Source: Corallococcus sp. bb12-1 (lineage in GTDB: Bacteria; Myxococcota; Myxococcia; Myxococcales; Myxococcaceae). Taken from it: DNA of 13,011 nt. Made by a program: the position numbers and the translations under genes. The notes beneath the pieces were generated by a model. That model had not been told where the DNA came from. It searched no databases and worked only from the letters and a program-made list of their open reading frames with translations. The stretch is taken from NCBI RefSeq assembly GCF_026626765.1, contig NZ_JAPNJZ010000012.1, positions 1-13,011 on the forward strand, written 5' to 3'. Of the stretch, positions 1 to 13,011 are shown piece after piece (the first letter of the stretch is position 1; the number at the start of each line of letters is the position of its first letter).

Positions 1-1735
1 CGGTGTCGGCGGTGCCTGCGTCCCTGCCGGAGGTGTCCGGCTGCGCGTCCCGGGAGGGGAGCGCCCTGGCGGAGAAGCTCGTCAGCAGTTCTGTCGGAGG
101 GCTCGGCTCACTCCGGTGACCGCCCAGGGGCTCCGGTTCTTCCTTCGCCGGTGCGGTCGGGAGGGTGGTCCTGGCGGTGTCGCTCCCGCTGTCCACCGAT
201 TCGGTCCGTGAAGGGGCTCGCGAAGGCTCCGGGGCCGGCGCGCGCTCACGCAGCGGCAGGCCCAGCACCATGGGCACCTCATCCGGCCGCATGTCGGGCT
301 CGGTCTTCACGAGCCGCGTGTCCATCCCTTCGTCCAGGGCCATGCCCATCACCAGGGGCAGGTCCTCGGCGCCTTCCTTGGGTGCCGCCGGTTCCGGAGC
401 CGCGGCCTCGGACGGAGCGGCTGGCGCGGCGGGCTTCGCGGCCGGCTTGGGCGCTGGCGCGGGCTTCGAGGCCTCCGGCATGCCCAGGCTCGCGAGCCGG
501 TTGGTGGGCGTGCCCGTCATGGTGACGTCGGGCGGCTCGTTGGCGGCGCCCACCGGCAGGTTTCCGCGGTTCTTCAGGAGCGAATCATAGAGGTCCAGCA
601 GCTGGCCCCGGATGAGGCCCGCGTCCAGCACCTTCTCCGCGTACTCGCGACCGGCCCGCCCCAGCGCCACGCGGCGGGGCACGTCGCGCGCCAGCTCCAC
701 GATGCGCTCGGCGAGCGCGCGGCTGTCCCCGGGTGGGAAGAAGACGGCCGCGTCCTGGGGGATGAGCTCGCGGGTGACGGGCAGGTCCGCGGCGATGACG
801 GGCCGGCCGGAGGCCATGTATTCGGAGACCTTGGCCAGCGGTCCGCCCTGGACCCGGTTGCGCTCCGAGTCGTCCAGGGGCAGCACACCCACGTCCGCCA
901 GGGCCAGCACCTTGAAGAGGTCGTCGTGGACGACGGGCGGCTGGAAGTCGACCTTCTCCTTGAGCCCCAGGTCCTTGACCAGGTCGTCCAGGTGGGGCTT
1001 CCAGTCCGGATGGTGCGCGCCCACGAGCGTCAGGCGCACGTCCACCTGCTGGGCGGCGAGCGCCGTGGCCCTCAGGAGGGTGGGCAGGCCCTGCCAGCCG
1101 ACGTGGCTGCCCAGGTACATCATCCTCAGGGGCGTGCCATCCGGGGCGCCGAGCACCTCCGGGTCATAGGGCTTCAGGTCCACGGGCGCGCGCAGCATGC
1201 GCAGCTGGTCTTCCGCCGCGCCCAGCCCCTGGATGTACCCGCGCGTCGTCTGGGAGCCCGTGACGACGAGGTCCGCGTTCATCAGGCAGAAGAGCTCCTG
1301 CCGGCGGATCTTCGACAGGAAGCGGCGGTCCCCGTCCGTCTGGGGATGGGTGTAGCGCAGCTCCTGCGAGGGGAAGGTCTGCGCCTCATAGATGAGGCGG
1401 TAGCCGTAGTCCGCCTTCAGCTCGCAGAGCGCGTAGCCGCCGAAGGGGTCCGTGAAGTGGGCGAGGGCGTAGTCCTCGCTTTCCAGCTGCCGACGCACGG
1501 CCCGCTCGAAGGATTGGATGCGCGAGGCCAGGTCGCCGGAGCCTACCGGGACGCGAAGCAGCCGTGCGCCCTGGTACTTCTCGATGTGGGAGTGGTCGGG
1601 CGTCTTCGCCGACAGCACCACCACGGAGAAGCGGTCAGGCAACGCCTTCAGATACTCGGTCAGTCGGCGTGAGGAGCCAGACGGGCCGGGGATGACGTCG
1701 AAGCTGCACAGGAGAAGTCTGGGCAGGTCACTCAA
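1..1735 (-). CDS. Family 4 glycosyltransferase (GT-B fold) with a ~200-aa Pro/Ala-rich low-complexity C-terminal extension. The C-terminus runs off the 5' edge of the window (partial, >578 aa).
   Basis: The start is TTG at 1733-1735, the only canonical start after an in-frame TGA three codons upstream. I checked the reverse-complement translation by hand: MSDLPRLLLCSFDVIPGPSGSSRRLTEYLKALPDRFSVVVLSAKTPDHSHIEKYQGARLLRVPVGSGD... continuing to ...VSEYMASGRPVIAADLPVTRELIPQDAAVFFPPGDSRALAERIVELARD... This is a typical GT4 N-terminal Rossmann domain plus the C-terminal nucleotide-sugar-binding motif. The frame stays open with high GC3 through a PAPAPKPAAKPAAPAAPSEAAAPEPAAPKE... tail all the way to position 1. 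It is not in the supplied ORF track, presumably because it is edge-truncated. Confidence 0.75.
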   Translation of the reverse strand, partial: MSDLPRLLLCSFDVIPGPSGSSRRLTEYLKALPDRFSVVVLSAKTPDHSHIEKYQGARLLRVPVGSGDLASRIQSFERAVRRQLESEDYALAHFTDPFGGYALCELKADYGYRLIYEAQTFPSQELRYTHPQTDGDRRFLSKIRRQELFCLMNADLVVTGSQTTRGYIQGLGAAEDQLRMLRAPVDLKPYDPEVLGAPDGTPLRMMYLGSHVGWQGLPTLLRATALAAQQVDVRLTLVGAHHPDWKPHLDDLVKDLGLKEKVDFQPPVVHDDLFKVLALADVGVLPLDDSERNRVQGGPLAKVSEYMASGRPVIAADLPVTRELIPQDAAVFFPPGDSRALAERIVELARDVPRRVALGRAGREYAEKVLDAGLIRGQLLDLYDSLLKNRGNLPVGAANEPPDVTMTGTPTNRLASLGMPEASKPAPAPKPAAKPAAPAAPSEAAAPEPAAPKEGAEDLPLVMGMALDEGMDTRLVKTEPDMRPDEVPMVLGLPLRERAPAPEPSRAPSRTESVDSGSDTARTTLPTAPAKEEPEPLGGHRSEPSPPTELLTSFSARALPSRDAQPDTSGRDAGTADT

Positions 1736-1864
1736 GCGGTCGCAGGATACTTGGACATGGGGAAGGTGTCATCGGTCGTGACGGAAGAAGAACGGGGTCC
1801 GCAGACAAACACATCCCGTGACGGATGCGTTGACCCCCTGTATGCCGCGACATAACGAGGCGGG
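1736..1864. promoter_or_regulatory. Divergent intergenic/promoter region between the GT4 gene (-) and the DUF4912 gene (+). It contains an exact 9-bp direct repeat CGTGACGGA (1777-1785 and 1817-1825, 40 bp apart) and a TTGACC -35-like hexamer at 1830-1835.
   Basis: GC content is locally lower here. The 9-mer occurs exactly twice within 129 bp. I found no convincing -10 hexamer at 17 bp spacing: TAACGA at 1853-1858 is poor, and CATAAC at 1851-1856 sits at 15 bp. Confidence 0.3.
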
Positions 1865-4270
1865 GTGTCCATGGATGAGCGGAAGGGCGTCACCTTGAGC
1901 TACCTGCGCGAGCTGGCCCGGAAATACCTCCGGGAGCGCTCCGGCGCGTCCCGAGGGCGTGAGTTCGTCGCCGCGCTGGCCGAGCGTGTTCCCGCCCTGG
2001 GGCGGCTCGCGCGCCTGGCAGGACTGAGCGTGTCCCAGCGCGGCTCCGGTGACGTGGGCGGTGAAGAGCGCAAGCTGGATTCCGGACCGCCGGATTCTGG
2101 TCCGGTGCAGGGCGCGAAGCCCGGGGCCGTTCCCCTGCCGCCTCCGGAGGTCGCTGACGCCGAAGGCGCACAGGCACGAGAACTTTTCTCGGAACCCATC
2201 ACCGAGCCCAGTGGTGGGCCCCGGACGCGGCCGGCCCGGGTGGTGACGTTCCCTGGCCGTGGTGGCAAGTCGCGCCGGGACCCGGACGACGAGGACACGC
2301 TGCCCTCGTTCCCGGAGACGCCCACGCCGCGTCCTTCGAGCGCGCCGACGCAGGACGCCGCGCCCCCGGCCGCCGCCGGAGCGGGCTTTGCGCCCGTAAG
2401 CGAGCCCCCGCATGCCGCCGAGCCCCTGGTGGAGGGGTTCTTCGTGACGAAGGTCGCGGGGCAGGCCGAAGCGCGCCGCCATCATCTGTTGGAGGAGCAG
2501 GCGCCGCGCCTGCCCCCCGCGGACCCGACGCCCGAGCGGCAGGAGCACCTGGGCGAGCTGCCCCTGGACTACCAGGACGACGCGATGGTGCTGCTCGCGC
2601 GCGATCCGCACACGCTCTTCGTCCTCTGGGACTTCAGTGATGCCAGCCGGCAGCGGGCCCTGGATGAGCTGCCGTCGCCGCGCGCGGTGCTGAAGGTGTT
2701 CGACGGGGAGGGTGTGTCGCGCGAGGTGGACTTCGCGTTGGAGTCGCGCAGCTTCTACCTGCGGGAGATGGCCCCCGGCCGCACGTACCGGGTGGAGGCG
2801 CACTTCGTCGGCTCGGATGGTCGTTCGCGCCGCATCGGACATTCGTCGAACCGGGCGACGCTGCCGCCGGCGGGACCGTCCTCGGACACGTCCATCCGGT
2901 TCCTGCACATGCCGCCCCCGCCCGTCGTGAACCGCGCGCGTGAGCAGGCCGTGCCGGTGGTGGCCCCGCGTGCCGCGGAGCCGCAGGAGCGCGAGTACGT
3001 GACGTGGCGCCGGGTGACGCTGCCGGGCAGCGCGGGCGTGCGCGACGTGCCGGAGGTGCACCGCGAGCGGGCCCCGGGCGCTTCGGATCAGCGCTATGGG
3101 GAGGCGCCCTACCTTGAGAATGTTCCCCGGGCGCCGGGGGCTTCGGACCAGCGGTATGCGCGTGGGGCGGAGGCGACGCCCGGTGAGGGCCTACCCCTGG
3201 CGCCTCCGCGTGCCCCGGGTGCTTCGGATCAGCGCTACCTGTCGGTGGATCGCGCGCCGGGCGCTTCGGATCAGCGCTACGGGCAGACGCTGCTTCCGGG
3301 CGGTGTGTCGGAGTATCGCTACCTGGAGGTTTCTTCCCGCGCCGCCGGAGCTTCGGAACAGCGCTACGTGGAAGGTGCTGGAGGGCAGGGCGCGTCGGGG
3401 CAGAAGTACATCGACGTGCCGCGAGCCCCCGGGGCTTCGGACCAGCGCTACCTCACGGTGTCGCCGGGGCCCGGGGCTTCGGATCAGCAGTACCTGACGG
3501 TGCCTCGTGCGGCGGGTGCATCGGATCAGCGGTATCTGGCCATGGATCGGGTGCCGGGTGCTTCGGATCAGCGGTACCTGACGGTGCCTCGTGCCGCTGG
3601 CGCATCGGAGCAACGCTACCTGGGCACGGAGGGCGCTTCGGGTCCGCAGTACCTGACGGTGCCTCGCGCGGCCGGGGCTTCGGATGCGCGCTATCTGGAG
3701 GACTCGCGCGCACCGGCGGGCCCGCCCGCGGCGCAGGGGCCTGCTGCTCCGCTTCCCGTGAATGGCCGAGGCGTGGGGAATGGCTCGCGCGCGCCTGCGA
3801 CGCCGGTCGCCGCGAAGCGGCCCGCGGACTCCTCCGCGTCGGACTCCCGTGCTCCAGGGGCGGTGGCTCCTGCGTCCTCGCGAGCCTCGGAGGCCGGGGC
3901 TCCCAGCGAGCCGTGGTCCTTGAGCGTGGCGCGCGGTCTGACCGCGTCCGAACAGCGAGCCCTCGACAAGGCGAGAGAAGCTGCCGAGGCGTCGCGGGAG
4001 GCCCCTCCGGCTCCCGCGCCTTCGGGTAACCCTGCTTCGACGGATGCGACGCCCGTGGCCTCGAAGGCCCCTGCCGCTCCTGTGGTGCCGAGCGCTCCAT
4101 CCGCAAAGGCCACCACGCCCCGGACGGAAGCCGCACCCGCTCAACCCTCGGCGCCCTCGAAGCCCGCCCCTCCGGAGCCGCTCGGGAAGGGCTCGCCGGA
4201 GCCTTCGTCTCCGGACTCCAAGTCCTCCACCTCCAAGTCCCGGCGCGCTTCGCGCCGTGGACGTTCGTGA
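1865..4270 (+). CDS. Rho_N-like N-terminus plus DUF4912 domain protein (801 aa). It has an internal array of ~14 tandem GASDQRY-type repeats and a Pro/Ala/Ser-rich C-terminal tail ending in a basic KSRRASRRGRS.
   Basis: The ORF track has a GTG start at 1865, with GAGG 6 nt upstream; an alternative ATG lies at 1871. The N-terminus LSYLRELARKYLRERSGASRGREFVAALAE resembles the Rho termination factor N-terminal (SAP-like) motif usually found at the start of DUF4912 proteins. The core LPLDYQDDAMVLLARDPHTLFVLWDFSDASRQRALDELP...RAVLKVFDGEGVSREVDFALESRSFYLREMAPGRTYRVEAHFVGSDGRSRRIGHSSNRATL is DUF4912-like. The stop is TGA at 4268-4270. Confidence 0.8.
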   Translation: MSMDERKGVTLSYLRELARKYLRERSGASRGREFVAALAERVPALGRLARLAGLSVSQRGSGDVGGEERKLDSGPPDSGPVQGAKPGAVPLPPPEVADAEGAQARELFSEPITEPSGGPRTRPARVVTFPGRGGKSRRDPDDEDTLPSFPETPTPRPSSAPTQDAAPPAAAGAGFAPVSEPPHAAEPLVEGFFVTKVAGQAEARRHHLLEEQAPRLPPADPTPERQEHLGELPLDYQDDAMVLLARDPHTLFVLWDFSDASRQRALDELPSPRAVLKVFDGEGVSREVDFALESRSFYLREMAPGRTYRVEAHFVGSDGRSRRIGHSSNRATLPPAGPSSDTSIRFLHMPPPPVVNRAREQAVPVVAPRAAEPQEREYVTWRRVTLPGSAGVRDVPEVHRERAPGASDQRYGEAPYLENVPRAPGASDQRYARGAEATPGEGLPLAPPRAPGASDQRYLSVDRAPGASDQRYGQTLLPGGVSEYRYLEVSSRAAGASEQRYVEGAGGQGASGQKYIDVPRAPGASDQRYLTVSPGPGASDQQYLTVPRAAGASDQRYLAMDRVPGASDQRYLTVPRAAGASEQRYLGTEGASGPQYLTVPRAAGASDARYLEDSRAPAGPPAAQGPAAPLPVNGRGVGNGSRAPATPVAAKRPADSSASDSRAPGAVAPASSRASEAGAPSEPWSLSVARGLTASEQRALDKAREAAEASREAPPAPAPSGNPASTDATPVASKAPAAPVVPSAPSAKATTPRTEAAPAQPSAPSKPAPPEPLGKGSPEPSSPDSKSSTSKSRRASRRGRS
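3068..3700 (+). repeat. In-frame degenerate tandem repeat array inside the DUF4912 gene: about 14 copies, 11 good and 3 degenerate. The peptide unit is P-R-A-[PA]-G-A-S-[DE]-Q-R-Y-L-T-V and the DNA core is gcttcggatcagcgctac. Unit spacing is 37-81 bp, settling to ~41 bp in the last six copies.
   Basis: The core occurs near 3079, 3138, 3219, 3261, 3347, 3431, 3473, 3517, 3558, 3599 and 3674. Degenerate copies lie near 3311 (SEYRYL), 3391 (GASGQKYI) and 3636 (GASGPQYL). Confidence 0.9.
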
Positions 4271-4296
4271 ACCCGCACGGCCTCTTCGACTGACCT

Positions 4297-5886
4297 ATGA
4301 GCCTGGGCTCCCTCGCGCTGGTCCTCCACGCACATCTCCCCTTCGTCCGTCACCCCGAGCACGAGGACTTCCTCGAGGAGGACTGGCTCTACGAAGCCAT
4401 CTCCGAGACGTACCTGCCGCTGCTGCGCGTGTTCGACGCGCTGGTCGAGGATCGCGTCCCCTTCCGGGTGACGATGACGCTCTCGCCCACGCTCGTCACG
4501 ATGCTCAACGACGACCTGCTGCGCGAGCGCTACGCCCGGCGTCTGGACCTGCTCTGCGAGCTGGGCGCCCGCGAGGTGCACCGCACCCGTCACGACGCCA
4601 CGTTCCATCCGCTGGCCGTCTTCCACCGCGACCACTTCGACTCGCTGCGCCTCGCGTACAACAACCACTACCGGCGCGACCTGGTCGGCGCGTTCCGCAG
4701 GCTCCAGGACGCAGGCCACCTGGAGATCCTCACCTGCAACGCCACCCACGGCTTCCTGCCGCTGATGCAGCAGACGCCCGAGGCCGTGCGCGCCCAGGTG
4801 ACGGTGGCGGCGAACCACTACCGGCAGAACTTCGGCCGTGACCCCGCGGGCATCTGGCTGGCCGAGTGCGGCTACTACCCGGGCCTGGAGCGCATCCTCT
4901 CCGCCGAGCGCATCCGCTATTTCTTCGTCGACACGCACGCGCTCACGGACGCCACCCCCCGCCCGCTGCACGGCCCCTACGCCCCCATCTTCACCGAGCC
5001 GGGCGTCGCCGCCTTCGCGCGCGACCCGGAGAGCAGCCAGCAGGTGTGGAGCACCGAGCACGGCTACCCGGGCGACCCCGTGTACCGCGAGTTCTACCGG
5101 GACATCGGCTGGGACCTGGACCAGGACTACATCCGGCCCTTCATCCAGCCCACCGGCGACCGGAAGAACACCGGCTTCAAGTACTTCCGCATCACCGGCA
5201 AGACGAACGACAAGCAGCCCTATGATCCGGCCGCGGCCCGCGAGCGCGCGGCCGTGCACGCCGGCAACTTCCTCTTCAACCGCGAGCGGCAGTTCGAATA
5301 CCTCGCCTCGCGCATGGGCGGCCGCAAGCCCGTGGTCGTCGCGCCCTACGACGCGGAGCTGTTCGGTCACTGGTGGTTCGAAGGCCCCCACTTCATCGAA
5401 GCACTCATCCGTCAGGCCGCGCGCGAGCCCCGGAAGTTCGACCTCATCAGCCCTCTGGACGACCTGCGCGCGCACCCGGAGAACCAGGTGGCCACGCCGC
5501 CCCTGTCGTCCTGGGGCGCGGGCGGGTACGCGAACATGTGGCTGGATGGGAGCAACGACTGGATCTACCGGCACCTGGACCACTGCGCGAAGCAGATGGT
5601 GGCGCTGGCTCGGGACTTCCCCGACGCCTCGTCCTTGCCGCGCCGGGCGCTGAACCAGGCCGCGCGCGAGCTGCTGCTGGCGCAGTCCTCCGACTGGGCC
5701 TTCATCATGAAGACCGGCACCATGGTGGACTACGCCGTGCGCCGGACGAAGGAGCACCTGCAGCGCTTCCTGCGCCTGCACGACCAGGTGCGCGCGGGAA
5801 CCGTCGATGAAGCGTGGCTGTCCCATGTGGAGGGCCGCGACAACCTGTTTCCAGAACTGGACTACCGGGTGTACCGGCCCGGTTGA
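4297..5886 (+). CDS. Glycoside hydrolase family 57 protein, a 1,4-alpha-glucan branching-enzyme homologue (GH57 catalytic domain plus C-terminal DUF1957-type helical domain), 529 aa.
   Basis: ATG at 4297. The N-terminus MSLGSLALVLHAHLPFVRHPEHEDF matches the GH57 family start motif (hydrophobic stretch then HxHLP[FY]V). GIWLAECGYYPG contains the family's WxAE nucleophile region. WWFEGPHFIE and the C-terminal helical region are also GH57-like. The length is typical for GH57 branching enzymes. The gene lies 26 bp downstream of the DUF4912 gene on the same strand, so an operon is likely. Confidence 0.85.
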   Translation: MSLGSLALVLHAHLPFVRHPEHEDFLEEDWLYEAISETYLPLLRVFDALVEDRVPFRVTMTLSPTLVTMLNDDLLRERYARRLDLLCELGAREVHRTRHDATFHPLAVFHRDHFDSLRLAYNNHYRRDLVGAFRRLQDAGHLEILTCNATHGFLPLMQQTPEAVRAQVTVAANHYRQNFGRDPAGIWLAECGYYPGLERILSAERIRYFFVDTHALTDATPRPLHGPYAPIFTEPGVAAFARDPESSQQVWSTEHGYPGDPVYREFYRDIGWDLDQDYIRPFIQPTGDRKNTGFKYFRITGKTNDKQPYDPAAARERAAVHAGNFLFNRERQFEYLASRMGGRKPVVVAPYDAELFGHWWFEGPHFIEALIRQAAREPRKFDLISPLDDLRAHPENQVATPPLSSWGAGGYANMWLDGSNDWIYRHLDHCAKQMVALARDFPDASSLPRRALNQAARELLLAQSSDWAFIMKTGTMVDYAVRRTKEHLQRFLRLHDQVRAGTVDEAWLSHVEGRDNLFPELDYRVYRPG

Positions 5887-5893
5887 GCGCTTC

Positions 5894-5919
5894 GGGAACA
5901 GGCGGGCTGGCCGGGAGTT
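5894..5919 (+). promoter_or_regulatory. Candidate ECF-sigma-type promoter upstream of the htrA/degP homologue: GGGAACA (5894-5900), a 16-nt spacer, then GTT (5917-5919).
   Basis: A GGAAC -35 followed 16-17 nt later by a GTT-containing -10 is the general architecture of ECF sigma (SigE/SigH/SigR-type) promoters. It sits about 70 bp upstream of the ATG at 5989. This is pattern matching only. Confidence 0.3.
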
Positions 5920-5928
5920 AACCTCCCG
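5912..5928. terminator. Short GC-rich hairpin CGGGAG-ttaac-CTCCCG (6-bp stem, 5-nt loop), 26 bp after the GH57 stop codon. It has no T-tract.
   Basis: The inverted repeat is seen directly at 5912-5917 and 5923-5928. It could be a weak terminator or processing stem for the DUF4912-GH57 transcript. It also overlaps the putative ECF -10 element, so its role is ambiguous. Confidence 0.2.
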
Positions 5929-5988
5929 CGAGCGGACGATGTCGTTCCGGTTGCGGGGACTCGTTTCCGCTTTAGCTTGAAGGAATCC

Positions 5989-7488
5989 ATGACCCACACG
6001 CTCCTTCCGTTCCGTCGCAAGCTCGTGACCGCCGTGTTGGTGCTGGCGTCGCCCACACTCGCCCTGGCGCAGGCTCCGGCGCCCAAGCCCGCCGCTCCGC
6101 GGACGCAGCCGGCGGTCACCGGGCAGGCCGGCAACCTCCAACCCGCCACGCGCGAGGCCCAGTCGCTGGCCTCGCTGGCCCCGCTGGTGGACTCGGTGAA
6201 GTCCGCCGTCGTGAACGTGGATGTGCAGGCCCGTCCCGAAATGCCGGAGGGCATGGAGGACAACCCGCTCTTCGACCGCTTCTTCGGCGGAAACGGTGGG
6301 CGGGGTGGCGGCCGCAGTGAGCGGGAGCAGGTCCGCCAGGGCGCCGGGTCCGGCTTCATCATCGACCCCAAGGGTCTGGTGCTCACCAACAACCACGTCA
6401 TCGCGGACGCGGTCACCATCACCATCCGCCTGGACGACGGCCGTTCGTTCACCGGCGAGGTGGTGGGGCGCGACCCGCTCACCGACGTGGCCGTGGTGAA
6501 GATCAAGGAGAAGGTGGATCAGCTGCCCACCGTGAAGCTGGGCGACTCGGACGCGGTGCGCGTGGGCGACTGGGTGCTGGCCATTGGCAACCCGTTCGGC
6601 CTCGCGTCCAGCGTCAGCGTGGGCATCCTGTCCGCGCGGGCCCGGGAGATTGGCGCCAGCGCGTACGACGACTTCCTCCAGACGGACGCGGCCATCAACC
6701 CTGGCAACTCCGGCGGCCCGCTGTTCAACATGAAGGGCGAGGTGGTGGGCATCAACACCGCCATCGTCGGCGGCGGCACGGGCATCGGCTTCTCCGTGCC
6801 CAGCAACCTCATCAAGGCGCTCCTGCCGCAGTTGGAGAAGAGCGGCTCCGTCACGCGCGGCTGGCTGGGCGTGGGCATCCAGCCCCTCACGCGCGACTTG
6901 GCGCAGGCGCTGAAGCTGCCAGTGAACGAGGGCGCCATCCTCACGCAGATCAACCCCGGCTCCCCCGCGGCGAAGGCGGGGCTCAAGGCGGACGACGTGG
7001 TCGTCGCCGTGGACGGGCAGAAGGTCCGCTCCGACAGCGAGCTCACCCGCACGGTGGCGCTCAAGAAGCCCAACAGCGTCACCACGCTCAGCCTCTACCG
7101 CGACGGCAAGGCCCAGGACGTGAAGGTGACCATGGGCACCCGGCCGGACCTGGAGGGCCTGTCCAAGAAGAAGCCCGAGGCCGCCGAGGAGCAGGACACC
7201 TCGCGCCGCGTGGGCGTGTCCCTGCAGGACCTGGATGCGCGCACCGCGTCCCAGGCGGGCTTCACCGAACGCTCCGGGGCGCTCATCACCGACGTCCTCC
7301 CCGGCTCGCCCGCGGACCGCGCGCAGCTGTCCCCGGGCATGTTGGTGGTGGAGGCGAACCGCAAGCCCATCGCGAGCGCGAAGGAGCTGGCTGCGGTCAT
7401 CCGCGCCGCGCCCGCGGGCGGCACCCTGCTGCTGCGCGTGGCCGGTCCCGGCGGCGGGCGGCTCCTGCGCGCGTTGAAGATGCCCTGA
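5989..7488 (+). CDS. htrA: Periplasmic HtrA/DegP/DegQ (Do) family serine endoprotease with a signal peptide and two PDZ domains, 499 aa.
   Basis: ATG at 5989 with AAGGA 5-8 nt upstream; the ORF track's TTG at 5977 is less likely. The signal peptide is MTHTLLPFRRKLVTAVLVLASPTLALAQA. Trypsin-fold motifs are present: GSGFIIDPKGLVLTNNHVI (His), DVAVVKI (Asp) and GNSGGPLFN (Ser). Two PDZ-like segments follow, containing GAILTQINPGSPAAKAGLKADDVVVAVDG and GALITDVLPGSPADRAQLSPGMLVVEANRKPI. Stop is TGA at 7486-7488. Confidence 0.9.
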   Translation: MTHTLLPFRRKLVTAVLVLASPTLALAQAPAPKPAAPRTQPAVTGQAGNLQPATREAQSLASLAPLVDSVKSAVVNVDVQARPEMPEGMEDNPLFDRFFGGNGGRGGGRSEREQVRQGAGSGFIIDPKGLVLTNNHVIADAVTITIRLDDGRSFTGEVVGRDPLTDVAVVKIKEKVDQLPTVKLGDSDAVRVGDWVLAIGNPFGLASSVSVGILSARAREIGASAYDDFLQTDAAINPGNSGGPLFNMKGEVVGINTAIVGGGTGIGFSVPSNLIKALLPQLEKSGSVTRGWLGVGIQPLTRDLAQALKLPVNEGAILTQINPGSPAAKAGLKADDVVVAVDGQKVRSDSELTRTVALKKPNSVTTLSLYRDGKAQDVKVTMGTRPDLEGLSKKKPEAAEEQDTSRRVGVSLQDLDARTASQAGFTERSGALITDVLPGSPADRAQLSPGMLVVEANRKPIASAKELAAVIRAAPAGGTLLLRVAGPGGGRLLRALKMP

Positions 7489-7503
7489 GGCGAGCGAGCG
7501 GCG

Positions 7504-8097
7504 ATGAGCGTCAACTACGTCTCGCTGGGTGACAGCACGGCGGTGGGGGTGGGGGCGGCGCAGGGCGGGGGATATCCCGACCGGCTCGCCTCCCGCCTCC
7601 GACAGGGTGGCCTGCCGGTGGGCCACACCAACCTGGGGCAGAGCGGCGCGCGCGTGCGCGACGTCGTCACCCACGCCCTCAAGCGCGTCGTCGCGTTGCA
7701 GCCCACGCTCATCACCCTGGGCGTGGGCACCAACGACCTCTGGCGCGGCACCGAGGTGGCGGAGTACCAGGACGACCTGGACCGCATCGCCCGGCGCCTG
7801 AAGCAGACCGGCGCGTCCATGGTGGTGGTGAACCTGGCCGACATGGCGCTCGCGCCCATCGCGAAGCTGGTGCCGAGCGCGCTGTACGAAGGGCGCATCG
7901 AGCCGTTCAACGAAGCCATCGCCACGGTGGCCCGCGCGCACGGCCTGCACCTGGTGGACCTGTACACGGCCAGCCGCGAGATGATCCCCCGGCGCTCTGA
8001 CTTCTTCTCCCCGGACGGCTTCCACCCGTCCGCGGTGGGCTACGAAGAGTGGGCGGACCTGATGCTGCCCGTGGTGCGCACGCTCGTGCAGCGCTGA
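7504..8097 (+). CDS. SGNH/GDSL-family hydrolase (esterase/lipase-like), 197 aa. It is probably co-transcribed with htrA, given the 15-bp gap.
   Basis: Block I is VSLGDSTAVG (GDS nucleophile), block II is NLGQSGARV, block III is GVGTNDLW and block V is DGFHPS (DxxH). I did not identify a signal peptide. Confidence 0.8.
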   Translation: MSVNYVSLGDSTAVGVGAAQGGGYPDRLASRLRQGGLPVGHTNLGQSGARVRDVVTHALKRVVALQPTLITLGVGTNDLWRGTEVAEYQDDLDRIARRLKQTGASMVVVNLADMALAPIAKLVPSALYEGRIEPFNEAIATVARAHGLHLVDLYTASREMIPRRSDFFSPDGFHPSAVGYEEWADLMLPVVRTLVQR

Positions 8098-8120
8098 GTC
8101 CCGCGCACCGTTTCCCGCTT
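8073..8120. terminator. Possible terminator between the convergent SGNH (+) and cyclase (-) genes: GGTGCGC (8073-8079) pairs with GCGCACC (8103-8109) around a 23-nt loop, followed on the + strand by GTTTCCCGCTT.
   Basis: The 7-bp inverted repeat spans the SGNH stop codon (8095-8097). The loop is large, but an inner GCT...AGC pairing is possible. The downstream U-tract is weak. The two stop codons are only 22 bp apart. Confidence 0.2.
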
Positions 8121-10045
8121 CACGCCTTGGCGATGCCCGAGGGGGCAGGGGGCGTCGTCGGAGCGTCCGAGGGCGGGGCGTTGATGCTGCGCTCGCGGCC
8201 GGGGTGCATCTCCATGCCCGCTTCGAAACACGTCACGCGGTTGCGGCCCGTGCGCTTGCTGCAATAGAGCGCCGAGTCCGCGCAATCCACCAGCGTCTCC
8301 TGCGAGTTCGCGTCCGTGGGGAAGTGCGCGACGCCAATGGACACCGTGACGTGGTTGCCCGGCAGGCCCGGCCGGCCCAGCGCTCCGGAATCCGCCACCG
8401 CGCGGCGCAGCGTCTCCGCGACCTCGAACGCCGTCGCCTTGGAGACCTGCGGCAGCAGCAGCACGAACTCCTCGCCGCCATAGCGCCCCAGCGTGTCCAC
8501 CTTGCGCGCGCGGGTGCGCAGCACGTCGGAGACCCGGCGCAGCGTCTCATCACCGGCCCGGTGTCCGGCCAGGTCGTTGAGCCGCTTGAAGTGGTCCACG
8601 TCCACCATCAGGAGCGCCAGCGGCACGCCGAAGCGCTGGGCGCGCGCCAGCTCCAGGTCCAACCGCTGGAAGAGGTGGCGCCGGTTGGGCACGCCCGTGA
8701 GCGCGTCCGTCAGCGTGAGCTTCACCGTCTCCGCGTGCAGGCGCGCGTTCGTCACCGCAGTGGCCGCCTGATCCGCCACCGCGGTGAAGAGCTCGATCTC
8801 CTCCGCGGAGAAGCACGCCGTCTCCGGCCGCTGGAAGTTGATGACGCCCAGGAGCGTCTCCGCGTGCACCATGGGCACCGCGAGCAGCGAGCCCTGCTCC
8901 GAACCGCCGCGCAGGCCGCGCCGGGCGAAGATGCTGGTGCTGTCGGTGAGGTCCGGCAGGTACACCGCCTTGCGCGTCTGGGCGGCCCGGCCACACGCGC
9001 CCTCGCCCACGGCGAAGGTGTGGCCCTCCAGGCCCCGGCCCTTCGGCCACGCGTGCTTCACCTCCAGCATGCCGTCCTCGTTGAGGAGCATGATGGAGAA
9101 GTCGGGGATGTGCAGGCGCTCCACCACCATGCGGGTGATGCGCGACAGGAGCTCGTCCAGCTCCAGCGTGGTGTTGAGCGAGCGCGCCACGTCGAAGAGC
9201 AGCGACAGCTCCAGCAGGCGCTCCTCCAGTTCGTCCTTGAGCGCCAGCTTCTCCTTCACCAGCTCCAGGTCGCGGTGCGTGTCGATCTCCTCCACCTTCA
9301 TGGAGGTGAGCCGCGCGAGCATCTGGTTGAAGGCCGCGCCCAGCCGCGAAATCTCATCCGTGCCCCGGGCGTCCGCGCGCACCAGCAGGTCTCCGGACTC
9401 CGCGCGCCCCATGACCTCGCTCAGCCGCTTGAGCGGACGCGTGAGGACGAAGCGCAGGCTCAGCCACGTGACGAGCGCCAGGATGCCCACGAAGAGCACC
9501 ATCGCCCCCAGCGCGTCGCCGAACATCGTCTGCAACTGGCGGTGCAGCGCGGGCTCGCCCAGGCGCACCTGCAACGCGCCCATGCGCTGCGCGGCCTCGC
9601 CGGTGTGACAGCCGGAGCACTCGGGGCCGCCAAGGGGCCGCACCACCTCCGTGCCGTGGTCGATGGTGCGCGCCGCCTCCTGCCCCGTCGCCGACAGCCG
9701 CGCGGCCTCCGGATGCGGGTGGCCCTGTTCGGCTGGACGCCGGCTCCACCGGATGCGCCCGTCCGGCGTCAGCACCCGCAGGTCCTCCACGGAGCGGAAC
9801 AGCCGCGTGTCCGACGCCAGCACCTCCGCCACCGCGCCGTGCGGAGCCGCGCCCGGCGCCTGCGGCAGGGTGAACGTGGACGCCACGAACTCCGCCAGCG
9901 CCAGGGCTTCCAGGTGCGTGCCTTCGCGCACGGCCTGCCGCGTCTCGCGCGAGAAGTGCCACACGCCCAGCAACGCCACCACCAACCCTGGCAGGCCAAT
10001 GCTCCAGAGGAGCTTCCTGCCAATCGTCTCGGAACCCAGGGCCAT
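8120..10045 (-). CDS. Membrane-bound sensor diguanylate cyclase: TM1, a ~140-aa periplasmic domain with a CxxCH motif, TM2, HAMP, a coiled coil, GAF and GGDEF (GGEEF active site with an RxxD I-site).
   Basis: The stop is TGA, read as tca at 8120-8122. I prefer the ATG at 10045 (MALGSETIGRKLLWSIGLPGLVVALLGVWHF, where TM1 begins) to the track's TTG at 10135, because the putative promoter lies between them. The HAMP segment is LKRLSEVMGRAESGDLLVRADARGTDEISRLGAAFNQMLARL. The GAF domain contains LLFDVARSLNTTLELDELLSRITRMVVERLHIPDFSIMLLNEDG... The GGDEF domain contains LTGVPNRRHLFQRLDLELARAQRFGVPLALLMVDVDHFKRLNDLAGHRAGDETLRRV, with RKVD followed five residues later by GGEEF (canonical I-site spacing). 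The periplasmic motif GGPECSGCHTGEA is encoded at 9605-9619. Confidence 0.85.
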   Translation of the reverse strand: MALGSETIGRKLLWSIGLPGLVVALLGVWHFSRETRQAVREGTHLEALALAEFVASTFTLPQAPGAAPHGAVAEVLASDTRLFRSVEDLRVLTPDGRIRWSRRPAEQGHPHPEAARLSATGQEAARTIDHGTEVVRPLGGPECSGCHTGEAAQRMGALQVRLGEPALHRQLQTMFGDALGAMVLFVGILALVTWLSLRFVLTRPLKRLSEVMGRAESGDLLVRADARGTDEISRLGAAFNQMLARLTSMKVEEIDTHRDLELVKEKLALKDELEERLLELSLLFDVARSLNTTLELDELLSRITRMVVERLHIPDFSIMLLNEDGMLEVKHAWPKGRGLEGHTFAVGEGACGRAAQTRKAVYLPDLTDSTSIFARRGLRGGSEQGSLLAVPMVHAETLLGVINFQRPETACFSAEEIELFTAVADQAATAVTNARLHAETVKLTLTDALTGVPNRRHLFQRLDLELARAQRFGVPLALLMVDVDHFKRLNDLAGHRAGDETLRRVSDVLRTRARKVDTLGRYGGEEFVLLLPQVSKATAFEVAETLRRAVADSGALGRPGLPGNHVTVSIGVAHFPTDANSQETLVDCADSALYCSKRTGRNRVTCFEAGMEMHPGRERSINAPPSDAPTTPPAPSGIAKA

Positions 10046-10106
10046 GTGCGGAACGCAGTGTCTCCGAAGCCCGCGCGTTCTGTGCAGCGGGAAGGAGTGT
10101 CCAGAA

Positions 10107-10135
10107 ATTGTCAGGGGGGTGACACGCCCTGTCAA
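10107..10135 (-). promoter_or_regulatory. Sigma70-type promoter on the minus strand reading toward the cyclase gene: TTGACA (complement of 10130-10135), a 17-nt spacer, then GACAAT (complement of 10107-10112).
   Basis: It has a perfect -35 hexamer and a 4/6 -10 hexamer that keeps the conserved A2 and T6. The predicted transcription start near 10100 lies downstream of the TTG at 10135, which supports the ATG at 10045 as the true start. Confidence 0.35.
10109..10134. promoter_or_regulatory. Nested inverted repeats TGTCA-N6-TGACA-N5-TGTCA (10109-10113, 10120-10124, 10130-10134) overlapping the -35/spacer of the putative cyclase promoter. The geometry resembles a CRP/FNR-family operator.
   Basis: TGTCA and TGACA are reverse complements. 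The first pair forms a 16-bp 5-N6-5 palindrome, one mismatch per half-site from the E. coli CRP consensus TGTGA-N6-TCACA. It sits in the 190-bp divergent region between the cyclase and pgeF genes. Confidence 0.3.
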
Positions 10136-10237
10136 ACGTACTCACGTGGAAATATTGAAGCTGGACTGCTGTTAGCAGCGAGTTCCTGTTTTCAGGGGCT
10201 GCGCCCATCATGGGGCGGAAGGCCCGAGGAAAGCCCC

Positions 10238-11035
10238 ATGTCGTCCACGTCCGCGCCTGCATTCCTCACGTCCGCGCTGTTGCCGGTGCCGCACGGCTTC
10301 GCCACGCGCGAGGGTGGGGTGTCGGAAGGGCCCTACGCGTCGCTGAACCTGGGGTTCTCCGTGGGCGACGAGCGCTCCCGCGTGGAGGAGAACCACCGGC
10401 GGCTGGCCCGGGCGGTGGGCGCGAAGCTGGGCGCGCTGGGCCGGGTGTCGCAGGTGCACGGCGACCGGGTGCTGGAGGTGAAGGGCGAAGCCGAAGACGT
10501 GCTGCGCCCGACGCTGGGTGAAGCGGACGCGCTGTGGACCGAAGGGGAGGGCAGCTGGGTGGCGGTGGGCACCGCGGACTGCGTGCCGGTGCTGCTGGTG
10601 GATCCGCGGGGGCGCCGGGTGGCGGCGGTGCACTCGGGCTGGAAGGGCACGGACCTGGAGATCAGCGCGCGCACGGTGGAGGCGCTGGTGGCGAAGGGTT
10701 CGCGGCCGGAGCACCTGCTGGCGGCGGTGGGCCCCTGCATCCAGGCGTGCTGCTACGAGGTGTCGGCGGAATTGGGGGAGCGCTTCCGGGCGCGCTTCGG
10801 TCCGGAGGTGGTGCGCGAAGGCGTGAAGCCCCACCTGGATCTTCCCCGGGCGGTGAGGGGCTCGCTGCTCAAGGCGGGCCTGAAGCCGGAACACGTGGAC
10901 GTGCTACAGGCCTGTACGGCGTGTGAGCGCGAGCGGTTCTTCTCCCACCGCCGGGACGCGGGGCTCACGGGCCGGCACCTCAATTTCGTGCTACACCAGT
11001 TCGAGCGTCCCGTTCCAGACCGGCCGTTTTCTTGA
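10238..11035 (+). CDS. pgeF: PgeF/YfiH family protein (peptidoglycan editing factor; DUF152, laccase-domain / purine nucleoside phosphorylase-like), 265 aa.
   Basis: ATG at 10238 with GAGGA about 9 nt upstream. It lies in the same frame as the long artefactual ORF 8204-11035. Family motifs present: LNLGFSVGDE, GTADCVPVLLVD (conserved Cys), AAVHSGWKGT (conserved His) and GPCIQACCYEV. Stop is TGA at 11033-11035. Confidence 0.85.
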   Translation: MSSTSAPAFLTSALLPVPHGFATREGGVSEGPYASLNLGFSVGDERSRVEENHRRLARAVGAKLGALGRVSQVHGDRVLEVKGEAEDVLRPTLGEADALWTEGEGSWVAVGTADCVPVLLVDPRGRRVAAVHSGWKGTDLEISARTVEALVAKGSRPEHLLAAVGPCIQACCYEVSAELGERFRARFGPEVVREGVKPHLDLPRAVRGSLLKAGLKPEHVDVLQACTACERERFFSHRRDAGLTGRHLNFVLHQFERPVPDRPFS

Positions 11036-11089
11036 CGGTCTCCGACCGGCCTTCCTATCCTCGACGCGGAATCTCCTCCGTCCAGGCTC

Positions 11090-11926
11090 GTGCCGGTGCG
11101 CTCCTTCTTCTTCCGCCTGTTTGCTGTCGTGGCGCTGTGCGCGCCGACTGGTTGCGCCACCACCGCCGCTTCCCAGACGGAAGTGGGGCGGCTGGAGGCG
11201 GAGCTGCGCACGCTGCGCGTCACCCAGGCGAAGCTGGTGGAGCGCCTGGAGCGGCTGGAGAACCGTGACGCCGTCGCCCGCGCCCGCGCCGCGTCCACGC
11301 CGGCGACGCCTGCTCCGGCGCCCGCGAAGAAGCCCGACGCGCCCCCCGCCGACGAAGGCCTGGGGCTGCCCCCGTCGGAGCTTGCGGTGGTGCGGCTCAA
11401 GCCGAAGAAGGAACCGGCCCCGCGCATCGCCACGGCGGTCGCGGTGTCGGAGCCGGATCCGGACCAGATGGAGATGTTCATCAGCCCGGCGGACGGTTCG
11501 TCGGGGACCGCGTCTCCGGGCCGGGTGGAGGTGCCGGACAAGGATCCGGCCATCCTCGAAGCCGAGTACGAGCACGCCGTGGCGCTCCTGCGCACCGGCA
11601 ACGTGGACGGGGGCGTGGAGCAGCTCACGCGCTTCGCGGAGGAGAACCCCCGCCACCCCCGCGCGGACAACGCGCTGTACTTCACCGGCCTGGGGCAGAT
11701 GGGCCTCCATGACACGGCCAGCGCCGCGAAGACGTTCGAACGCCTCATCAAGACCTACCCCGCTGGGGATGCCATCCTGGACGGCATGCTCCGGCTCGCG
11801 GAGTGCCGGGTGCGGCTGAATCAGGCCGTGGATGCCAGGGCCCTCTATACTCGCGTCGTCACCCAGTTCCCGGGGACGGCCGCCGCCACGCAGGCGGAGC
11901 AGCGGCTCGCCGCGCTCTCGCCGTAA
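11090..11926 (+). CDS. Exported coiled-coil plus tetratricopeptide-repeat protein resembling YbgF/CpoB (the Tol-Pal-associated periplasmic protein), 278 aa.
   Basis: GTG start at 11090, the first start after the in-frame stop at 11033. The N-terminal signal is MPVRSFFFRLFAVVALCAPTGCATT. A coiled coil follows: QTEVGRLEAELRTLRVTQAKLVERLERLENRD. The C-terminal TPR region carries the YbgF-type pattern ...ALYFTGLGQMGLHDTASAAKTFERLIKTYPAGDAILDGMLRLAECRVRLNQAVDARALYTRVVTQFPGTAAATQAEQRLAAL. Stop is TAA at 11924-11926. Confidence 0.7.
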   Translation: MPVRSFFFRLFAVVALCAPTGCATTAASQTEVGRLEAELRTLRVTQAKLVERLERLENRDAVARARAASTPATPAPAPAKKPDAPPADEGLGLPPSELAVVRLKPKKEPAPRIATAVAVSEPDPDQMEMFISPADGSSGTASPGRVEVPDKDPAILEAEYEHAVALLRTGNVDGGVEQLTRFAEENPRHPRADNALYFTGLGQMGLHDTASAAKTFERLIKTYPAGDAILDGMLRLAECRVRLNQAVDARALYTRVVTQFPGTAAATQAEQRLAALSP

Positions 11927-11953
11927 GACCTTTTCGTGAAAGGACGTCGTCCG

Positions 11954-13011
11954 ATGCGCTCCCGGATCCTCGCCTCCCTGCTCGTGCCCCTCGCCATCTC
12001 GCCGGCGTGGACGGCCCATGCCCAGCAGCAGGACGCGCAAGAGGAGGAACCGCAGCCGGCCAGCAGTGAGACGGAAGGCCAGGACATCTCCGACGAAGCC
12101 CCGGAGCGCCCCACCTCCGTCACGCTGCCCCCAGGTGCCGCCCAGGGCCGCGAAAGCGCCCCCGGTCAGGTGCACACGGTGGAGGGCGGCGACACGCTGT
12201 GGGATTTGTCCCAGCGCTACCTGGGCAGCCCCTGGTACTGGCCCAAGGTCTGGTCCTACAACCCGCAGATCGCCAACCCGCACTGGATCTACCCGGGCAA
12301 CAACGTGAAGTTCTTCCCCGGCGGCGAGGAAGTGCCGTCGCGCGTGGAGGCGGGTGACCTTCCCTCCGACGACGTGGTGGCGCCCCAGGACGTGAGCGGC
12401 GCCAGCCTGGTGTCGGTGGTGGGGAAGATCGGCTACGACGTGTCCGCGTCCCGGCCGGTGACGACCAAGGGCTTCGTGACGTCGCGCGAGCTGGACGAGG
12501 CGGGCCGCATCGAAGGCTCCCCCTCCGAGGCGCTGATGCTGTCGACTCCGGAGCGGGTCTACCTGCGCTTCAAGAAGAAGGGCGCCGCCAAGGTGGGGGA
12601 TCGCTACGTCATCTTCCACACCGTGGAGCCGGTGAAGCATCCGGTCACGGGCGCCAAGGCGGGCTTCCTCACGGAGCTGCTGGGCACGGTCCAGGTGACC
12701 GCCATCAACGACGAGATGGTGACCGCCCGCATCATGGAGACCTGGGACCCCATCGAGCGCGGCAACTACGTGGGCCCCTCCAGCGAGCGGCTGTCGGAGC
12801 GCGTGGCGCCCAAGCCGAACTCCAAGGAGATCCCCGGCTACGTGCTGACGCCGATGACGCCGGGCCAGACCGTGATGGGCGAGCACCACTACATCGTCGT
12901 GGACCGCGGCACCGCGGACGGCGTGCAGGTCGGCAACACCTTCACCATCGAGCGCAAGGGCGACCCGAGCCTCGACGTGCTCAGCCGCGTCGACTCGAAG
13001 CCGGGCGAGAT
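11954..13011 (+). CDS. Secreted LysM peptidoglycan-binding domain protein. The N-terminal 352 aa are in the window and the 3' end runs off the edge.
   Basis: ATG at 11954 with AAAGGA about 10 nt upstream. My hand translation gives the signal MRSRILASLLVPLAISPAWTAHAQQ. The LysM domain is HTVEGGDTLWDLSQRYLGSPWYWPKVWSYNPQIANPHWIYPGNNVKF. The downstream region (...RVYLRFKKKGAAKVGDRYVIFHTVEPVKHPVTGAKAGFLTELLGTVQVTAINDEMVTARIMETW...) matches no domain I recognise. It is missing from the ORF track because it is edge-truncated. Confidence 0.8.
   Translation, partial: MRSRILASLLVPLAISPAWTAHAQQQDAQEEEPQPASSETEGQDISDEAPERPTSVTLPPGAAQGRESAPGQVHTVEGGDTLWDLSQRYLGSPWYWPKVWSYNPQIANPHWIYPGNNVKFFPGGEEVPSRVEAGDLPSDDVVAPQDVSGASLVSVVGKIGYDVSASRPVTTKGFVTSRELDEAGRIEGSPSEALMLSTPERVYLRFKKKGAAKVGDRYVIFHTVEPVKHPVTGAKAGFLTELLGTVQVTAINDEMVTARIMETWDPIERGNYVGPSSERLSERVAPKPNSKEIPGYVLTPMTPGQTVMGEHHYIVVDRGTADGVQVGNTFTIERKGDPSLDVLSRVDSKPGE

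Follow-up and report, generated by a model that had tools for sequence, protein, structure and literature searches.

The left end of a 13,011-nt stretch of the Corallococcus sp. bb12-1 genome (this whole stretch is the window) raises the question of whether three adjacent genes, encoding a GT4 glycosyltransferase, a DUF4912 protein and a GH57 enzyme, act as one α-glucan module or contain a smaller functional unit. Gene order was determined over the whole window, whose G+C content is about 71%, from codon-position GC, the listing of open reading frames (ORFs) and Pfam. The initial annotation of this DNA had described the three genes with a divergent GT4 gene, a 26-nt gap and low-complexity extensions, and the ORFs and Pfam matches reproduced all of these features. 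The GT4 and DUF4912 genes are divergent, and the ATG of the GH57 gene lies 26 nt past the DUF4912 stop codon:

2..1735, minus strand, GT4 glycosyltransferase gene, running past the left edge (Pfam)
1871..4270 from ATG (799 aa) or 1865..4270 from GTG (801 aa), plus strand, DUF4912 protein gene (PF16258)
4297..5886, plus strand, GH57 gene, 529 aa (PF03065 and BE_C)

The most useful outcome of the analysis is that the DUF4912 and GH57 genes form an operon found across phyla. Our favoured reading as a whole, which we regard as reasonably probable, is that this DUF4912–GH57 operon is ancient, that the DUF4912 protein is a non-catalytic partner of GH57 in α-glucan metabolism, and that the GT4 gene is a lineage-specific neighbour.

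DUF4912–GH57 gene pairs across phyla and their α-glucan context

In Myxococcota, the DUF4912 gene was directly upstream of the GH57 gene in every locus with enough flanking sequence. The pairing extended to distant metagenome-assembled genomes (MAGs) of an uncultured deltaproteobacterium, Myxococcales and Anaeromyxobacteraceae, in which the DUF4912 core is 42–45% identical, and the Myxococcus xanthus orthologues of the two window genes are MXAN_2993 (DUF4912) and MXAN_2994 (GH57). These loci were obtained by a single-pattern DUF4912 scan of genome contigs, which returned Myxococcota only. For other phyla, the Thermotoga maritima GH57 protein AmyC was used as the query, the encoding contigs were then inspected, and DUF4912 was annotated with Pfam. 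In Kosmotoga pacifica and a Candidatus Omnitrophota MAG the DUF4912 gene immediately precedes GH57, with an overlap of 8 nt in the former, and gaps of 4 nt were observed in a Thermotoga relative, in the locus of a 99%-identical AmyC copy and in Petrotoga olearia. One AmyC-matching locus had no upstream DUF4912 gene.

A metagenome scan anchored on GH57 collected 80 loci with 28–72% G+C, of which 68 had at least 900 nt of upstream sequence. A same-strand DUF4912 ORF lay directly upstream in 46 of these 68, with gaps mostly between -3 and 60 nt, and such upstream ORFs were confirmed as PF16258 by Pfam in 47 of 47 cases. Because the family has about one copy per genome, this recurrent adjacency cannot be due to chance, and the DUF4912–GH57 pair is an old and widely conserved bicistronic unit. 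That DUF4912 genes recur beside GH57 genes had been stated in the initial annotation; the association proved to be far wider, covering Myxococcota, Thermotogota, Omnitrophota and metagenomes. Against plasmids, tblastn with the DUF4912 core gave no match, and the GH57 search returned actinobacterial Rv3031-like genes only.

Expression signals at the ends of the unit were also searched for. The consensus scan missed the plus-strand promoter-like element, which was recognised by eye in the alignment:

1830..1858, plus strand, DUF4912–GH57 promoter-like element, TTGACC-17-TAACGA, some 12 nt before the DUF4912 start codon (ATG at 1871)
5953..5970, plus strand, terminator-like hairpin in the interval between the GH57 gene and the following HtrA gene, from a consensus scan whose count was no higher than in shuffled sequence

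The CGTTGACCC block at the promoter-like element is invariant in 8/8 aligned genera or loci, and the position of the hairpin fits a bicistronic DUF4912–GH57 unit.

To place the pair in a pathway, Pfam was run on the ORFs that flank the metagenome pairs most closely, one per side. The neighbours were mostly unrelated housekeeping genes, with an enrichment of α-glucan genes: starch-synthase-type Glyco_transf_5 (three upstream, three downstream) and GT4 (three upstream, four downstream). NTP_transferase proteins with hexapeptide repeats (four), phosphoglucomutase (four), glucoamylase-like proteins (two) and a second GH57 (two) were found as well. Three neighbours are bona fide GlgA, with TIGR02095 scores of 527–586 bits against a cut-off of 328; GlgA directly follows the DUF4912–GH57 pair in two loci, and in the third (L085) it follows GH57 with an upstream flank too short to judge. 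In three other loci a GlgM/Rv3032-like GT4 gene is located directly upstream of DUF4912. The best model for these GT4 proteins is TIGR02149 (1e-40 to 1e-46), and they match the Rv3032 orthologue of Tsukamurella at 1e-32 to 1e-44.

These α-glucan neighbours indicate that the pair works in α-glucan metabolism, often alongside a classical synthase. The α-glucan pathway assigned by the initial annotation thus gained support for the pair from glgA, GlgM/Rv3032-like GT4, NDP-sugar pyrophosphorylase-type and phosphoglucomutase neighbours in other lineages. Its description of the system as GlgA/GlgB-independent was contradicted by the loci of other lineages in which glgA directly follows the pair; in our proposed mechanism the pair would act alongside ordinary glucan synthases and not in their place.

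The GH57 enzyme and the DUF4912 protein

The window GH57 protein matched PF03065 with 107.8 bits (gathering threshold 21.2) and PF09210 (BE_C, DUF1957) with 140.3 bits (gathering threshold 25). Its closest solved relative is T. maritima AmyC (TM1438; PDB 2B5D), a loop-less GH57 described as a 'glycogen branching enzyme with high hydrolytic activity', which aligned over the full length with an E-value of 1e-168 and about 60% identity; the branching enzymes of Thermococcus, Pyrococcus and Thermus gave weaker matches (1e-74 to 1e-82). Region, fingerprint and loop criteria for GH57 were taken from PMC9291813. All five conserved sequence regions (CSRs) are found in the window protein (HAHLP at 11, LEILT at 142, WLAEC at 187, DAELFGHWW at 352 and AQSSDW at 462), as are the HxHLP and ELFGHW fingerprints of glycogen branching enzymes (GBEs). 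The catalytic residues are kept, with the nucleophile Glu190 in CSR III (nt 4864–4866) and the acid/base Asp352 in CSR IV (nt 5350–5352). Judged by its sequence, the window GH57 is an intact branching-enzyme homologue of the AmyC type, and the original identification of a branching-enzyme homologue was borne out; loss of the catalytic Glu/Asp pair, which would have counted against the α-glucan assignment, was not observed.

'True' GH57 GBEs have β5–β6 strands and a flexible loop of about 17–22 aa that covers the active site; neither was found in the window protein. Aligned with the Pyrococcus horikoshii GBE (5WU7), it shows gaps of 14 and about 11 residues where these two elements should be, whereas its alignment with the loop-less AmyC is free of gaps at these positions, and it therefore belongs to the loop-deficient class. 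The NCBIfam equivalogs for branching proteins, NF041133 and NF041566, scored 321.5 and 317.1 bits, below their cut-offs of 1000 and 920. T. maritima AmyC thus shares with the window protein the five regions, the catalytic Glu/Asp, the missing loop and β5–β6, and the upstream DUF4912 gene.

Of the GH57 'GBE' sequences in the analysis of Xiang et al. 2021 (PMC9291813), 92% were of the loop-less class. Although these enzymes dominate the family numerically, their activity on amylose in vitro is very low or undetectable: branching of about 9–14 mU/mg was reported, the Mycobacterium tuberculosis member Rv3031 was inactive, and the in vivo substrate and role of loop-less 'GBEs' were stated to be unknown (PMC9291813). 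The biochemically characterised loop-less lineages that we checked (T. maritima AmyC, Kosmotoga pacifica and Petrotoga) all carry a DUF4912 gene a few nucleotides upstream. This upstream gene is unmentioned in the GH57 papers PMC9291813, PMC6616209 and PMC10708623, and a literature search pairing 'Rho termination factor' with GH57 found nothing. Should the DUF4912 protein prove to be a subunit, an activator or a targeting factor of GH57, co-expression could reveal the real activity of loop-less GH57 enzymes and give a function to a domain whose conservation spans Thermotogota and Myxococcota. In a separate study, proximity labelling with EpsW, a regulator of exopolysaccharide, enriched eleven proteins including MXAN_2994, to which the authors gave no role (PMC12802240).

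The DUF4912 protein of the window matched PF16258 at aa 236–341 with 67.8 bits (gathering threshold 29.4; E-value 1.3e-18), and its 801-aa form has 100% identity to the DUF4912 domain-containing protein recorded for Corallococcus sp. bb12-1. Its anatomy was derived from alignments of the myxobacterial orthologues and two AlphaFold models, in which the predicted local distance difference test score (pLDDT) served as a proxy for disorder. All of the following parts are on the plus strand:

1895..2017, plus strand, N-terminal Rho_N/SAP-like helix-loop-helix, aa 11–51 (helices 11–22, 31–41 and 43–51; pLDDT 58–76; conserved in the family)
2042..2560, plus strand, Pro/Gly/Ala-rich disordered linker, aa 60–232 (pLDDT about 40)
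2570..2899, plus strand, DUF4912 core, FN3-like β-sandwich, aa 236–345 (pLDDT 85–95 at aa 240–345)
2987..3070, plus strand, β-hairpin EREY(V/I)TWRRVxLPGS...PEVHRER, aa 375–402 (pLDDT 76–88; residues invariant in the Myxococcota alignments)
3077..3712, plus strand, array of 13 GAS[D/E]QRY repeats, aa 405–616 (14-aa/42-nt period; Tandem Repeats Finder and a repeat finder; pLDDT 30–46)
3713..4267, plus strand, Ala/Pro/Ser-rich basic tail, from aa ~613–617 to 801 (mostly pLDDT <50; helix at aa 694–711)

In the full-length AlphaFold model, 532 of the 801 residues (66%) have a pLDDT below 50, which supports a largely disordered protein. The Pro/Ala-rich extensions and the basic RRASRRGRS end that had first drawn attention to this protein were confirmed by composition, and by pLDDT the extensions are predominantly disordered. 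Pro accounts for 18% of linker residues 51–180, and the tail at aa 613–801 has 23% Ala, 18% Pro and 16% Ser with a net charge of +9. Short conserved segments nevertheless occur within the disordered parts. The linker carries PAxVV(T/N)FP at aa ~123–130 and AEPLVEGFFVxxxxGxxEAxxHHL at aa 185–208, and the extreme C-terminus, ...S(R)RGR(S), is an SGxGR-type motif kept even in distant Myxococcota loci. The GAS[D/E]Q motif is present in 9–14 copies in Corallococcus and M. xanthus, in 2–6 copies in Archangiaceae-like loci and in none elsewhere. The repeat copies are only 60–90% identical in DNA (window 3065–3704) and retain the peptide motif, a pattern suggestive of selection for the motif rather than of recent slippage. 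The T. maritima-type proteins have about 240–260 aa, compared with about 800 aa in Corallococcus, which adds the linkers, the 13 repeats and the basic tail.

Two further ideas about this protein were considered and rejected. The repeats do not strictly track the presence of GT4, as they might if they were a glycosylation substrate, since L003, L026 and L027 have GT4 and no repeats. The conserved Trp and Tyr of the DUF4912 domain, considered as a sugar-binding platform, appear from the model and the alignment to be the FN3 core Trp and the tyrosine corner. As a side observation, every GAS[D/E]QRY copy has a Ser and a Tyr that are conserved and could be sites of modification.

Across the wider family, the FN3-like domain is constant. 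Outside Myxococcota, a second, Ig-like and Glucodextran_B-like C-terminal β-sandwich was found in 18 of 47 metagenome ORFs (and also at L034:6016-7077; best E-value 6e-8). The N-termini vary between a Rho_N-like hairpin, a Lys/Ala/Pro-rich basic (histone-like) stretch, a transmembrane (TM)-like segment and none. The window protein has only the β-hairpin where relatives have the second β-sandwich. A constant FN3-like domain with variable N-termini would fit an adaptor: the constant part would touch either enzyme or glucan, and the modules would set the location.

The N-terminal hairpin raises another explanation, in which the DUF4912 protein, as a remote relative of Rho, would bind nucleic acid and regulate transcription or translation of GH57 instead of acting on the enzyme or its glucan. 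The initial annotation had described a Rho_N/SAP-like start. The helix hairpin of the model and sub-threshold matches of orthologues agree with this, but a Pfam search of the window protein for Rho_N (PF07498) was negative up to an E-value of 10, so the assignment rests on orthologues and the structure model. In Myxococcus, Anaeromyxobacteraceae and Thermotogota orthologues Rho_N scored 17–22 bits, below the gathering threshold of 24.9, and 9 of the 47 distant family members matched it, the best at 2.9e-7. The Lys-rich, histone-like N-termini of other members would also suit a regulator, as would the literature, where the protein is described as 'Rho-like', conserved among cyanobacteria and functionally uncharacterised (PMC13613805). 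These cyanobacterial proteins have the same Rho_N-like N-terminus followed by DUF4912 and lack an RNA-binding or ATPase domain, and no link to GH57 was reported for them (PMC13613805); the Corallococcus gene, in contrast, is translationally close to GH57. Pfam likewise found neither the cold-shock-like RNA-binding domain of the Rho terminator nor a RecA-type ATPase domain in the window protein. Many family members, moreover, have no N-terminal module or have a TM-like segment instead, and the FN3-like core, often with the Glucodextran_B-type domain (18/47), is typical of protein- or carbohydrate-binding accessory domains. We therefore regard a regulator of this kind as very improbable.

In the favoured reading, GH57 would be a cytoplasmic, catalytically intact α-glucan transglycosylase or branching-enzyme homologue of the AmyC class. 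The DUF4912 protein would be its non-catalytic partner, composed of the FN3-like β-sandwich and variable targeting modules, which in the window protein would be the Rho_N-like hairpin, the long disordered linkers, the 13 GAS[D/E]QRY motifs and the basic tail. It may bind, position or activate GH57 during the metabolism of an intracellular glycogen-like α-glucan; we infer a physical or functional partnership of this sort, and its direction, targeting or activation, is inferred in the same way. Plant PTST, mammalian STBD1 and the glycogenin tails are known non-catalytic adaptors of glucan enzymes that combine a small β-sandwich with disordered or coiled regions. The resemblance is a functional analogy only, as DUF4912 has no sequence or family relation to them and no signature of carbohydrate-binding modules CBM20, CBM21 or CBM48.

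A stronger version would make the DUF4912 protein an obligate partner that docks the loop-less GH57 through its FN3-like domain and tethers it to some structure of the cell through the variable modules (Rho_N-like hairpin, Lys-rich tail or TM segment); in Myxococcaceae, the system would have turned multivalent and driven by disorder, and the 13 motifs and the motif-rich GT4 tail would organise or prime a glucan granule. If true, this would explain the near-zero activity of loop-less GH57 enzymes assayed alone, and the protein would be a bacterial counterpart of organisers of the glycogenin, PTST and STBD1 type. We consider this version improbable.

The divergent GT4 gene, its clade and its link to aglZ

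The remaining member of the proposed module is the GT4 gene, which comprises the following parts:

554..1735, minus strand, GT4 catalytic domain (GT-B; Glyco_transf_4 and Glycos_transf_1), likely start TTG at 1735
2..553, minus strand, Pro/Ala-rich C-terminal tail, cut by the window edge, no Pfam domain
1744..1772, minus strand, GT4 promoter-like element ATGACA-17-TATCCT, the only sigma-70-like match in 1600–6100

Pfam gave Glyco_trans_1_4 at 2.2e-20, Glycos_transf_1 at 1.5e-15 and Glyco_transf_4 at 2.5e-10, of which Glyco_transf_4 and Glycos_transf_1 were above their gathering thresholds. The TTG start falls in an invariant block of the intergenic alignment, and Corallococcus, Myxococcus, Citreicoccus, Archangium and Vitiosangium agree at every column of both hexamers of the GT4 promoter-like element. 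The back-to-back promoter-like elements (window 1736–1870) also enclose a conserved AACA(C/G)A block, and both predicted leaders are very short.

The proposal that this GT4 is an Rv3032-like α-1,4-glucan synthase was not supported by the clade tests, and placement among other GT4 clades was a condition that the initial annotation had itself set against its α-glucan assignment. The window GT4 had no match to TIGR02149 or the glgA models of NCBIfam at E≤0.01, and its NCBIfam matches were weak (PEP-CTERM-associated glycosyltransferase, WcaI, EpsE and MshA) and far below the cut-offs. BLASTP against the Rv3032 orthologue of Tsukamurella gave an E-value of 0.008, and this orthologue, as a positive control, matched TIGR02149 (glgA_Coryne) at 2.4e-39. 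When the profile of the GT4 family was searched against the PDB, the Thermosynechococcus sucrose-phosphate synthase (SPS; 6KIH) came first (5e-26), followed by MshA (4e-20 to 1e-15), PimA, PimB', BshA and Alr3699, and GlgM (6TVP) was twelfth at 7e-9. By these profile and BLASTP comparisons, the window GT4 is placed outside the α-glucan GT4 clade (GlgM/Rv3032/TIGR02149), and it may still use a glucosyl donor. SPS and MshA are, like the window GT4, retaining GT4 enzymes of the GT-B fold, a similarity at the family level only; compared with them, the window family carries an additional tail, several hundred disordered residues long, and a conserved peptide at its C-terminus.

This tail had been estimated at about 200 aa. 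It is real, and its part in the window spans at least 184 aa with 17% Pro, 16% Ala and 16% hydrophobic or aromatic residues, but judged by complete relatives its true length is much greater. Complete GT4 ORFs of other Corallococcus have about 930–980 codons, and the M. xanthus gene (MXAN_2992, L005:6664-9831) encodes 1055 aa with a tail of about 650 aa, in which ten TP[IV][IV][KR]-type motifs are found, 8/10 followed by Pro (TPIVKAP). The tails of the family are variable and disordered and end in a conserved PWxAQLxxGYCPPE..RHxPP peptide; the window copy stops short of both the TP[IV][IV][KR]-type motifs and this peptide.

The mycobacterial Rv3032/Rv3031 pair of the methylglucose lipopolysaccharide (MGLP) cluster resembles the window in having a GT4 gene near a loop-less GH57 gene, and Rv3031 is of the same structural class (PMC9291813). 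Identity between the window GH57 and actinobacterial GH57 proteins is only about 30%. The Tsukamurella MGLP-type cluster consists of a methyltransferase, GH57, GT4 and acetyltransferase on one strand, without DUF4912, and the window differs from it. No MGLP-type SAM methyltransferase or acyltransferase was found beside the window genes, whose neighbours are HtrA, a GDSL hydrolase, a GGDEF protein and a TPR protein. The MGLP analogy thus fails for the GT4 in clade, gene order and the missing methyl- and acyltransferases.

Synteny also weakened the tie between the GT4 gene and the pair. Myxococcaceae, Archangiaceae-like genera and certain MAGs share the divergent GT4–DUF4912 layout, at GT4 identities as low as 49%, and GT4 homologues at 42–44% identity had no DUF4912 or GH57 nearby. 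The distant Myxococcota pairs L028–L031 had no GT4 within 10 kb, and their neighbours were GlnE, NtrC-type regulators, kinases, Omp85, LysS and nucleoside phosphorylases. The three-gene synteny on which the initial annotation relied is therefore confined to a sub-clade of Myxococcota, as distant Myxococcota and other phyla keep DUF4912–GH57 without this GT4.

One Myxococcota MAG (L004) departs from this picture. At L004:7943-9999, it keeps a GT4 61% identical to that of the window beside strongly diverged partners: a DUF4912 protein of 255 aa, diverged beyond recognition by Pfam, and a GH57 shortened to 430 aa, with 37% identity, which retains WLPEC, DAELFGHWW and AQASDW. It has no aglZ, the gene that is otherwise the usual neighbour of the GT4.

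A single GlgA/GlgB-independent module of GT4, DUF4912 and GH57, comparable to Rv3032/Rv3031 and scaffolded by the disordered tails, could account for this retention in L004, for the divergent layout with its invariant back-to-back promoter-like elements, and for the enlarged, motif-rich tails of both the GT4 and DUF4912 proteins in the same clade. That other lineages place a GlgM/Rv3032-like GT4, a small GT4 or GlgA beside the pair agrees with it as well. The clade tests, the GT4 homologues without the pair and the pairs without this GT4, the GlgA adjoining the pair in some lineages and the absence of MGLP-type methyl- and acyltransferases all argue against it, and we judge such a module unlikely. 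The weaker proposal, in which the pathway of the pair includes the GT4 at some point, is a plausible one that falls somewhat short of an even chance.

The other association of the GT4 is with aglZ. In 16 of the 18 GT4 loci with a readable downstream flank, the GT4 gene is directly upstream of an aglZ-like gene, which encodes a receiver and coiled-coil protein of about 1400 aa and lies on the same strand, 85–122 nt downstream (L002, L003, L005, L006, L009, L015, L017, L018 and L020–L027). In M. xanthus this gene is MXAN_2991, the gliding motility gene aglZ, as confirmed by coordinates (L005:2377-6564 corresponds to CP000113 3504676-3508863). The GT4 could accordingly belong with aglZ, in gliding motility or in cell-surface or protein glycosylation, and stand beside the pair through inherited synteny only. 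The adjacency holds in L002, which has no DUF4912 or GH57, and the C-terminal peptide and TP[IV][IV][KR] repeats of the GT4 are unrelated to glucan enzymes. Set against this are L004, with GT4 and the pair but no aglZ, and L001, whose GT4 has neither aglZ nor the DUF4912–GH57 pair, and in the literature searched no experimental tie of aglZ to any glycosyltransferase was found. In the developmental transcriptome of M. xanthus, MXAN_2993 is mildly up-regulated (about 2.2-fold) and falls in group 7, against group 5 for aglZ and group 8 for MXAN_2995; MXAN_2992 and MXAN_2994 are absent from the list of regulated genes. These expression data neither strengthen nor weaken the aglZ link and are uninformative on co-regulation. 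We consider it rather unlikely that the GT4 belongs with aglZ in this way.

In the favoured reading, with its DUF4912–GH57 operon, the GT4 would be a Myxococcota-specific neighbour with its own conserved promoter-like element, for which a role in the glucan pathway is possible but unproven. Several observations weigh against the reading. DUF4912 was absent within 5 kb in 22 of the 68 metagenome GH57 loci and in L036, the FN3-like fold is generic and reveals no ligand, and L004 keeps its GT4 by the diverged pair without aglZ. The repeated recruitment of different glycosyltransferases beside the pair also leaves room for the GT4 as a member of the pathway. Compared with the other phyla, the myxobacterial version adds a repeat-rich disordered architecture and an unexplained link to a long-tailed GT4 beside aglZ.

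Other features of the window

The rest of the window, to the right of the GH57 gene, contains the following genes:

5977..7488, plus strand, HtrA/DegP-like protease gene (Pfam)
7504..8097, plus strand, GDSL/SGNH hydrolase gene (Pfam)
8120..10135, minus strand, HAMP-GAF-GGDEF protein gene (Pfam)
ending at 11035, ORF aligning by synteny with a Cu-oxidase_4 (YfiH-like) gene of M. xanthus
11090..11926, plus strand, TPR protein (YbgF-like) gene (Pfam)
about 11930–13011, plus strand, ORF with high G+C at the third codon position, exiting the right edge; M. xanthus synteny predicts a LysM-domain protein

The gene order of window 5977–11926 is kept in M. xanthus (MXAN_2995 onward) and largely so in related genera. 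An Rfam search of the window gave no match. The database entry of the GT4 is 'partial' and lies on a 314-kb contig, and window position 1 is therefore probably the contig end. In at least six independent Corallococcus or Myxococcaceae drafts (L008, L011–L014 and L019), the region is on its own contig of 7–8.3 kb (window 1..~7570), and these contigs start within the GT4 tail and end about 80–120 nt past the HtrA gene. This suggests that the sequence at both ends of those draft contigs is impassable for short-read assemblers.

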